Shown here piece after piece: positions 34,726-37,540 of a DNA stretch of 64,000 bases (position 1 is the first letter of the stretch; each line of letters opens with the position of its first letter). The translations under genes were made by a program, and so were the position numbers. Source of the stretch: Hypanus sabinus (Eukaryota). The stretch lies in the NCBI RefSeq assembly GCF_030144855.1, contig NC_082708.1, forward strand, positions 65,100,001 to 65,164,000, written 5' to 3'. The notes under the pieces are model-generated. The model did no database searches. It had not been told where the DNA came from and saw only the letters and a list, made by a program, of their open reading frames with translations.

Positions 34726-37540
34726 TGTAATATTTAAGTATTATTTGAGTAATCTTATATGTGTGTGTGTATATACATAAAATAGGTCGATTAAGCATTC
34801 TTGTGCATTTAAATAATTCATTATGAATTGTATGCAGTTCACATATTTATACATATGTTATTACGCTATCACATGATATGGGCATGCCTTGCTTAAGACA
34901 CAGAGTTAGGTGCCCCTTTTGGACTTTGGTGTCTTCCTTTGAATTAGTTTAATGTTTTGCAATTAAAAAACATTAAAAACATTGGTTTGTTTTTTTTAAA
35001 TGAATACAATTTGGCTACCAACCTGCTGAAGCAGAGCAAGATATTCAAACTCAGACAAAATAAAGAACAGCTGAATTTTTTAAAAAGCAGAGCAGCATGT
35101 GCTTAGATAATCCAGTTAAAAAATGGCAGAAAACTTAATCATTATGAACCCATAAATACTTAAGTACAGGGTGATAATAATCATTTAAAAAAAGCAGAAA
35201 TGGCTGGCAATATCAGAAAGATGGACGCTTTTGATAATACAACAGATAACTGGATTTTATGTACTGAACAAATTGAACATTGAAATAAATAAAATAGCCA
35301 ATGAGAAACAAGTTGTAATTTTGCTGATCGTATTGGGTTTAAAGGCATACAGTTTGCTTCAAAGTTTGACCTCTCTAACCAAATCAGCAGAAATGAGTTT
35401 TGCTGATATTGTCAAAGTAATGGAGGAACATTTGAAACTGAAGCCATTGTTGATTGCAAAATGCTTTAGGTTTCATAAGCAGAATCAAAAAGAAAGGAAG
35501 TCCATTTCAGCTTCCATGGCTGAATTGAAGAGATTGAGCAATGTCAATTCAGTATGGCCTAAAAGACGCATTGAGAGTTTGCTTACTTTGCGGAATCTTA
35601 TTAGAAAGTATTTAAAAACAGCTCCTCACTGAAGCACAACTCATACTTAGAAGAGCATTGGAAATCACAGACAGATGCAATTGAGTTGCAGTCAGGAGTG
35701 AAAGTCAGTGTGAATAAAATTGCAAGGTCTAAATAGAAACTGGCCTAGCTGACCAAATTTTGTTACTGTTGTGGCAGGGGATCAATGCAGATTTAAGAGT
35801 GAAACTTGCATAAAATTCAACAAAGTAGGACGCATACTAAGGAGTGTGTTGGGCAGACAAAAATAAGTGGACTACATAGAGAAGAGAAAAAGGTAAAAAG
35901 TTGCATTTTCAAAAAGCACTAATCTGCATGCTGTTTGTGAAAAATCTGATAATGAGAGTGACACAGGACTGTATGGCCTTGAGATTTAAAATGTGAAAAC
36001 TTAACAACAGACAAGCATTGTGGCTTATACCAGAAGTGAACGGCAAATTAATTAAAAAGGAATTGGGCACCGGTTCAGCTGTTTCAATCATTCCACAAAA
36101 TTAGTATGAATGGTATTTCAAAGGTACTAAGCCAAAGCCAGTAGATATCTAATTAAGAACTTATACTGGAGAAAAGATTTCTCCTGTGGGAATGAGATTC
36201 GTGACAGTCAAATACGACAACCAACAAGCCACATTGAGCTTGTATGTGGTACGAATAGCAGGGCCAGAGTTGCAGTGATGTGATTGGCTGAGACAACTAC
36301 AACTTGATTAGAGATCCATCCACAATTTGCATACCACATCCCCTACAATAAAGTCAACTGAAAGTGAATTATGAAAGGTACTGGATGATGCTTCAACAGT
36401 CTCCATGCTGAACACCATCAACCTTTGCCCAACAGAGGTCAAACAGGTGTTGGTGCTAACCTCTGTGCCTCTGTTTGGAAAATATATTGGACTAAGGAAG
36501 AATCATGCTGCTCAGAGGAATTGTGAAAATGACAAAAACAGTGGTCCGACTACAACACTTTTTGTAGACAGTGTTTCTGAGAAAGCTTCTGATGTGGTAA
36601 TCAGGCAGTTACTTACAAAAAATGGCTTTGTTTTAAGCTGGAAGAGAGTTCAAGGAGTTTCAGGAAAGTTGCAAGCATTCATCTTTTGTAAGCTTAAGGA
36701 ACCAGAATCTACTCTGTGTGCATTAAGGTTATTGCATGAACTTCAATTGGGAGACAGAAAAGCCACTGGTAAAAGTAGATGCAAAGACCAAAGCCCAACT
36801 GGATTAATGGAAGGCAAAAAAGAAAGGAGTCAATGGAGATACGAAAACAGAGGATTTTGTCAGATGATGCTGTGGATGAGAAAACCAAGAGGAGAGATCA
36901 GATTGTGAAGGGAGCAATAGAAGAATTAATAAGAGAATACTCCAGTGAACTAAATGCAACTTCCGAAGATCAAGATGCACAAACTAGAAGAAGGAGAAGA
37001 AAGGTGTCCAGAGTTGTCAGAACCACTTCCTGCAGTCTCAGAGTCAACTCTTACAACCACTAATGAGGAGGCATTAGAGGTTGTTTCACAGCCACAAATC
37101 TCACCTGCCAAGTAGGGTGATCTCTCTTGTCAGGAAAGACATTATCCCACAATGATAGGAAATCTTCCACAGTGATTAAATCTTTAGGCCTGAATGGGGT
37201 AATTTAAATTTTACAAAGTTGTGGCTGCCTGTGTATTATAGTTGAATTATATAGTATACTCTGAATATAGTTGAGATGCATTCTCTATTGAGTTGGAGTT
37301 TATAGCTAGGCAGGGAGGAGTGTTGCGTATTTAATATTTGAGTAATCATGTGTATGTATTTTTGTTCATTTAAATAGTTCATTATGAGCTATATGTATAA
37401 ATACATGAATTGTATACATTATCATGCTACCATGTGATACAGGTGCACCTCACTTAAAGTAAACCACAAAGTTAGACTCATACTTTGGACTCCAGTGTCT
37501 TCCTTTGAATTAGTTTAATGATTTGAAATTACAAAACATA
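34726..37540 (+). mobile_element. Old Gypsy-type LTR element, non-autonomous, with captured host sequence
   Basis: Diverged LTRs at about 34726-34975 and 37321-37540 (shared gtgtcttcctttgaattagtttaatg). PPT gcagggaggag. Decayed gag (MAGNIRKMDAFD; LIAKCFRFHKQNQKE), protease (LGTGSAVSII) and integrase tail (ERHYPT..NLPQ.LNL*). Confidence 0.8.
36447..37003 (+). pseudogene. RBM25: Intronless RBM25 fragment (RRM and downstream region), frameshifted
   Basis: GPTTTLFVDSVSEKASDVVIRQLLTKNGFVLSWKRVQGVSGKLQAFIFCKLKEPESTLCALRLLHELQLGD, then LVKVDAKTKAQLD*WKAKK and DEKTKRRDQIVKGAIEELIREYSSELNA. This matches the vertebrate RBM25 N-terminal region as I recall it. Confidence 0.92.

Follow-up and report, generated by a model that had tools for sequence, protein, structure and literature searches.

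Organization of the LTR element

The window, a 64-kb stretch of repeat-rich vertebrate DNA with many LINE and LTR frames, contained on its plus strand an LTR element that enclosed a piece of RBM25 coding sequence. Direct-repeat search and global alignment delimited a 5' LTR (34726..34972) and a 3' LTR (37321..37538), both with TG...CA ends. The pair was 79 % identical, with 44 differences (32 transitions and 12 transversions) over 208 aligned sites, eight gaps and a K2P distance of 0.26 in the global alignment. Right behind the 5' LTR, 9 nt of its end were repeated in tandem, with TTGG next, and no recognisable primer-binding site was found there. A polypurine tract of 13 nt, 12 of which were purines, directly preceded the 3' LTR (37308..37320).

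A broken gag (35200..36005) was followed by an aspartic protease and a pre-RT linker, which together displayed five stops (36006..36401). The whole region from 35200 to 36401 matched the unnamed polyprotein P0136 (tblastn E 9e-66), the top match of the representative search; with X placed at each break, 212 of the 401 aligned codons were identical. P0136 itself gave weak Pfam matches to protease and zinc knuckle. Alignment with P0136 and P0138, on which the Pfam zf-CCHC family was located, revealed remnants of two zinc-knuckle motifs at about 35760-35840 of the window. From the resemblance of its gag, the element may belong to the Mag group.

Full-length relatives carried gag, protease, RT, RNase H and integrase in one frame, which is the Ty3/Gypsy order; the element itself kept only gag, protease, linker and tail. 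Homology to these relatives stopped at 36401. None of the 23 relatives, at least five of them with a Pfam RT, matched the element past the linker, neither by RT and RNase H nor by the integrase core; as a positive control, the RT-bearing relatives matched another Gypsy element of the window at 15846-18383, with E values down to 1e-71. Missing from the element were about 2.5 kb covering RT, RNase H and integrase, or some 840 pol codons as measured on relative P0233 (residue 411 to about 1250). These codons were replaced by the 599 nt of RBM25, not interrupted by them. The sequence-only reading had proposed the order of two LTRs, gag, protease, pre-RT linker, sense RBM25, polypurine tract and 3' LTR, with RT, RNase H and integrase core absent where RBM25 sits, and both points were confirmed here. 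Pfam applied to pieces of the window retrieved RRM_1 at E 0.15 and no family in six of the eight pieces; Rfam gave no match in 33000-40000.

The RBM25 insert

The insert began with 14 codons (36405..36446, plus strand) resembling the non-canonical N-terminus of gene model P0122 (10 of 14 identical). It continued with spliced RBM25 coding sequence (36447..37003, plus strand) comprising the RRM (about 36558-36765), the next helix and a lysine run. Its length was thus 599 nt (36405-37003), which corrects an earlier estimate of about 560 bp. When the protease-linker-RRM frame was used as query, the best RBM25 match was P0122, a 220-residue Heptranchias perlo model on a 27.6 kb contig, with 153 identities among 199 aligned residues (77 %) over 36405-37003. 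Nearly all named rows among the matches listed (120 + 14) were RBM25, the remainder being hypothetical or unnamed, and a PDB search returned generic RRMs only. The likeness to P0122 extended past the RRM into a stretch that bony vertebrates do not share closely, which points to a cartilaginous fish as the host. The insert was cut at both ends, with about 200 residues against ~800 in full-length matches; it included the complete RRM and lacked the RE/RD-rich region and the PWI domain, both of which are present in the 843-residue human RBM25 protein (PMC3553564).

Intron positions were inferred from breakpoints in protein gene models and not from parent DNA, using 127 models from named sources; these counts, like those on decay and selection, exclude the seven unnamed RBM25 rows. 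An insertion or read-through after KLQ was displayed by 10 of the 127 models, while one model began at KCG and another skipped directly after the preceding residue. At Asn-Gly, four of ten short models ended or read through. Five of the 58 models matching the lysine-run pattern, P0122 among them, continued with Val, and eight further models, as judged by eye, began or diverged right before the VLV stretch. The insert was continuous across the four inferred positions (near 36447, 36618, 36675 and 36838), and this absence of breaks indicates that its template was a spliced mRNA. Its end lay about 5 nt before that of the next exon predicted in this way. An origin of the RBM25 piece from a single exon or from an intron was ruled out. 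The earlier claim of a spliced RBM25 capture in place of the pol core was supported.

The 14-residue N-terminal segment was shared with P0122 and was seen in none of the other named matches. Four P0122 residues that follow it were missing from the insert, which could mean that splicing had used another acceptor 12 nt downstream, or else that the residues were deleted later. At either side, the insert ended within a few bases of the ends of P0122; this may be a coincidence with a model truncated by its scaffold, or the sign of a genuine short isoform. Judged from these alignments, a short RBM25 isoform of sharks or rays may have been captured with its coding region almost complete. The insert is in this sense a fossil transcript, and its 14-codon match to a shark model suggests that the segment is a real shark/ray RBM25 exon or isoform and not an annotation accident.

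Junctions and 3' tail

The protease frame ran into RBM25 without a shift. At the 5' junction (36402..36404) a single codon separated the linker from the first Met of the RBM25 model: eight relatives with a matching linker proceeded by Val-Phe into RT, while the element displayed Val-Ser and then the Met at 36405. This frame continuity agrees with the Gag-protease-RRM fusion of an earlier suggestion; the RRM, however, is decayed, and no listed protein spans both halves.

Downstream of the insert, 37004..37187 was occupied by a low-complexity frame of the integrase C-terminal type, out of frame with RBM25, with one internal stop and a stop of its own located 120 nt upstream of the purine tract. 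Its identification as the integrase tail, which had been taken as given in the sequence-only reading, is moderately supported by alignment. Two of five relatives' C-termini aligned with it better than shuffles (18 and 8 of 2000), but the other three did not (708-1231 of 2000), and a homolog search with the tail produced four candidates, none of which was significant. A conserved motif found 53-91 residues from the end in these relatives was absent from the tail.

No A-run of seven or more was found in 36400-37320. The best repeat flanking the insert (10 nt with two mismatches) was equalled by 82 of 187 random pairs and therefore belonged to the background. The RBM25 piece accordingly lacks a poly(A) and a TSD of its own, as had been claimed, and an independent processed pseudogene with these two features was ruled out.

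Decay and selection

The gag-protease region displayed 10 stops and eight frameshifts, or 18 breaks. RBM25 displayed one stop and two to three frameshifts (breaks at 36762, 36805 and 36856, and a purine run near 36986 as the third frameshift). Changes were found in both of the RRM motifs that we take to be RNP1 and RNP2. K values were calculated from protein columns by assuming neutral evolution, not from parent DNA. They amounted to 0.115 (0.085-0.155) for all RBM25 columns, to 0.09 (0.055-0.14) for the 100 columns that were conserved in 90 % or more of the 117 named rows, and to 0.135-0.155, a value biased upward, for gag-protease. Half the LTR divergence was 0.129 (0.09-0.18), and all these intervals overlapped.

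RBM25 looks slightly less decayed than the rest of the element. It held one stop against 10 in gag-protease (p 0.08), and its share of disabling changes was 3/21 or 4/22 (p 0.05-0.10). Among the conserved columns 14 of 100 were changed, the expectation being 23.5 at K 0.129 (p 0.012) and 17.2 at K 0.09 (p 0.24). Variable columns, whose differences include those between species, were changed in 25 of 92 cases (p 0.03 against the conserved ones). The 14 conserved-column changes were no more conservative than neutral ones (p 0.30). This deficit of damage could stem from chance, from an already defective donor, from later insertion or from brief selection. Element and RBM25 are now a dead relic, in which the RRM has decayed rather than been maintained; an open frame under purifying selection, which would characterise a functional retrogene or a domesticated fusion, was not found.

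Target site, copy number and surroundings

No target site duplication directly flanked the element. A candidate right copy, TAAGA (37539..37543), is suggestive only; its candidate left counterpart, TAGGA (22949..22953), was located 11.8 kb away, beyond LINEs piled on the 5' LTR, and agreed in four of five bases, a match expected by chance in 2-11 % of cases. The nested LINE stack (22954-34725) consisted of a minus-strand LINE, presumably CR1-like, with its tail at 22954, interrupted by a second such element (23005-23922) and by a long and presumably L1-like one (about 24527-34717). The latter was bordered by the same five bases on each side, and its truncated end adjoined the 5' LTR. If the displaced duplication is real, the chimera would be the oldest layer and the product of a single integration. 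The stack also contained a transposase-like frame (29424-30194).

A second copy of the chimera was not found in the 64-kb window. None of the 77 protease-side matches showed likeness to RBM25, and no protein among the matches listed spanned protease and RBM25; this negative is weak because decayed copies are rarely predicted as proteins. P0260, the only two-stretch match of the representative search, was rejected, as it contained only the RRM family and no protease.

The chimera is possibly located within the first intron of a gene on the plus strand. A GC-rich stretch resembling a promoter or first exon, and containing a CCAAT box as well as a potential donor, was noticed at 22400-22630 (plus strand). 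An exon-like frame at 44641-44725 (plus strand), beginning with Met and a lysine run and ending with a GT donor, is a possible coding start of a host gene and had no Pfam match. For such a host gene, none of the 24 unique-sequence frames (24 of 84 listed) reached the Pfam cut-off.

Other repeats were encountered in the window. A very young BEL/Pao-like element (39245-43980), with 673-bp LTRs that were 99.85 % identical, displayed one open frame of 1122 codons with DUF1759 and DUF5641. RT, RNase H and integrase core were not found in it, so that another pol-deleted element lies at a distance of 1.7 kb from the chimera. A near-intact Gypsy of another lineage occupied the minus strand (15378-19308), with a pol frame of 1027 codons, a gag-like frame of 306 codons and 280-bp repeats (15118-15397 and 19158-19437) that were 91 % identical. 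A tandem array with a 32/64-bp period was located at 11414-12805, and related units were found near 52587-52745.

Origin of the chimera

The locus is best explained as an LTR-mediated retrocopy, produced by a double template switch with a co-packaged RBM25 mRNA, integrated in trans and decayed thereafter; we regard this origin as probable. A spliced RBM25 transcript would have been packaged alongside Ty3/Gypsy RNA. During minus-strand synthesis, reverse transcriptase would have left the element RNA within the integrase tail and moved onto the RBM25 transcript, of which it copied some 600 nt, starting in the lysine run and finishing at the Met of an upstream exon, before a second switch returned it to element RNA at the pre-RT linker. 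The chimera, having kept both LTRs and the polypurine tract, could then have been integrated by the enzymes of an intact partner, and would have decayed by roughly 10-13 % per site since. This origin is favoured by the replacement of pol, by a sense insert that is doubly cut, intron-less and without poly(A) or TSD, and by overlapping ages. Against it count the somewhat lower decay of RBM25, the lack of a directly flanking TSD and the moderate support for the tail. Of the capture proposed in the sequence-only reading, the presence of spliced RBM25 inside an LTR element in place of the pol core was supported.

The order of events may also have been reversed: an intact element came first, and an RBM25 cDNA, either LINE-primed at the lysine run or patched in during break repair, was inserted later, with 2.5 kb of pol deleted. 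LINEs are plentiful in the window, the 3' end of RBM25 lies within a purine-rich run and RBM25 seems slightly younger than its surroundings; insertions accompanied by deletion and devoid of a TSD are known, too. The age intervals overlap, however, and RBM25 has neither poly(A) nor TSD, while its sense orientation and clean internal replacement, both expected under template switching, would here be due to chance. Late insertion is accordingly improbable in our judgement.

Considerably less credible is a spread of the chimera in cartilaginous fish as a non-autonomous family, in which an in-frame Gag-protease-RRM product was made and selected for a time, the RRM entering particles in the place of RT. 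Chimeras of this kind are documented to have spread secondarily (PMC5131818), the captured RRM is complete, and the frame is kept across the 5' junction, with a Met within one codon, but one junction in three would be in frame by chance. Stops and conserved-column changes are fewer than the LTR clock suggests; this deficit disappears if the lower bound of the LTR interval is used, and an already defective donor would explain it, too. Furthermore, RNP1 and RNP2 are mutated, the window holds no second copy, and the absence of a junction-spanning protein among the matches listed points, if weakly, in the same direction.

That the two halves arrived as independent insertions, brought together near an RBM25 pseudogene by deletion or recombination, or else by an assembly error, is scarcely plausible, since against the low LTR identity (just 79 %, with eight gaps) and the lack of an adjacent TSD stand an LTR divergence that fits interior decay, parts in canonical order, and LINEs that adjoin the 5' LTR with a four-of-five candidate TSD past them.

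Relation to known systems

Neither an RBM25 retrocopy nor LTR-driven capture in sharks was found reported in the open-access literature. With the template-switch origin preferred here, the known range of LTR-driven gene capture would come to include an apparent cartilaginous fish; a larger significance would follow only from the existence of many copies with common junctions and with selection acting on their RRM. The mechanism is established, and the architecture as well as fusions in frame have been described before (PMC5131818).

LTR-mediated retrocopies were described across animals by Tan et al. (2016, PMC5131818), who assigned five of seven zebrafish retrocopies to LTR elements, found six of 17 fly retrocopies of table S12 in frame with an upstream element ORF, and considered microsimilarity at switch points as a main hallmark; secondary spread of the resulting chimeras is covered in the same study. 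Like the present case, their retrocopies are doubly truncated partial mRNAs that replaced internal element ORFs, kept both LTRs, lack poly(A) and TSD and are often in sense (PMC5131818). The segment found here was likewise intron-less (by inferred introns), 3' truncated, without poly(A) or TSD, and situated between discontinuous element flanks (the 3' tail with moderate support) and two LTRs. It differs in its parent gene, the term 'rbm25' having no match in the supplementary files searched (file 1 left out), in its old age, and in its host, the survey having included no cartilaginous fishes (PMC5131818).

Two knuckle-like motifs were present in the element's closest relatives, as in Ty3/Gypsy groups with two CCHC arrays, a trait common to Mag and Micropia/Mdg3 (PMC2577118); the element itself is devoid of an RT by which to place it in a clade tree. 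Processed pseudogenes of L1 type share with the insert an intron-less and decayed mRNA copy, but the insert has no poly(A) tail or TSD, is heavily truncated at its 3' end, and replaced its target instead of interrupting it. Maize Bs1 and human HERV-K/FAM8A1 also carry host exonic sequence in an LTR element (PMC5131818). As described in that source, Bs1 comprises three genes, exists in multiple copies and is believed to be coding, unlike the single dead copy seen in this window; FAM8A1 is, like the present copy, a dead processed pseudogene (PMC5131818).
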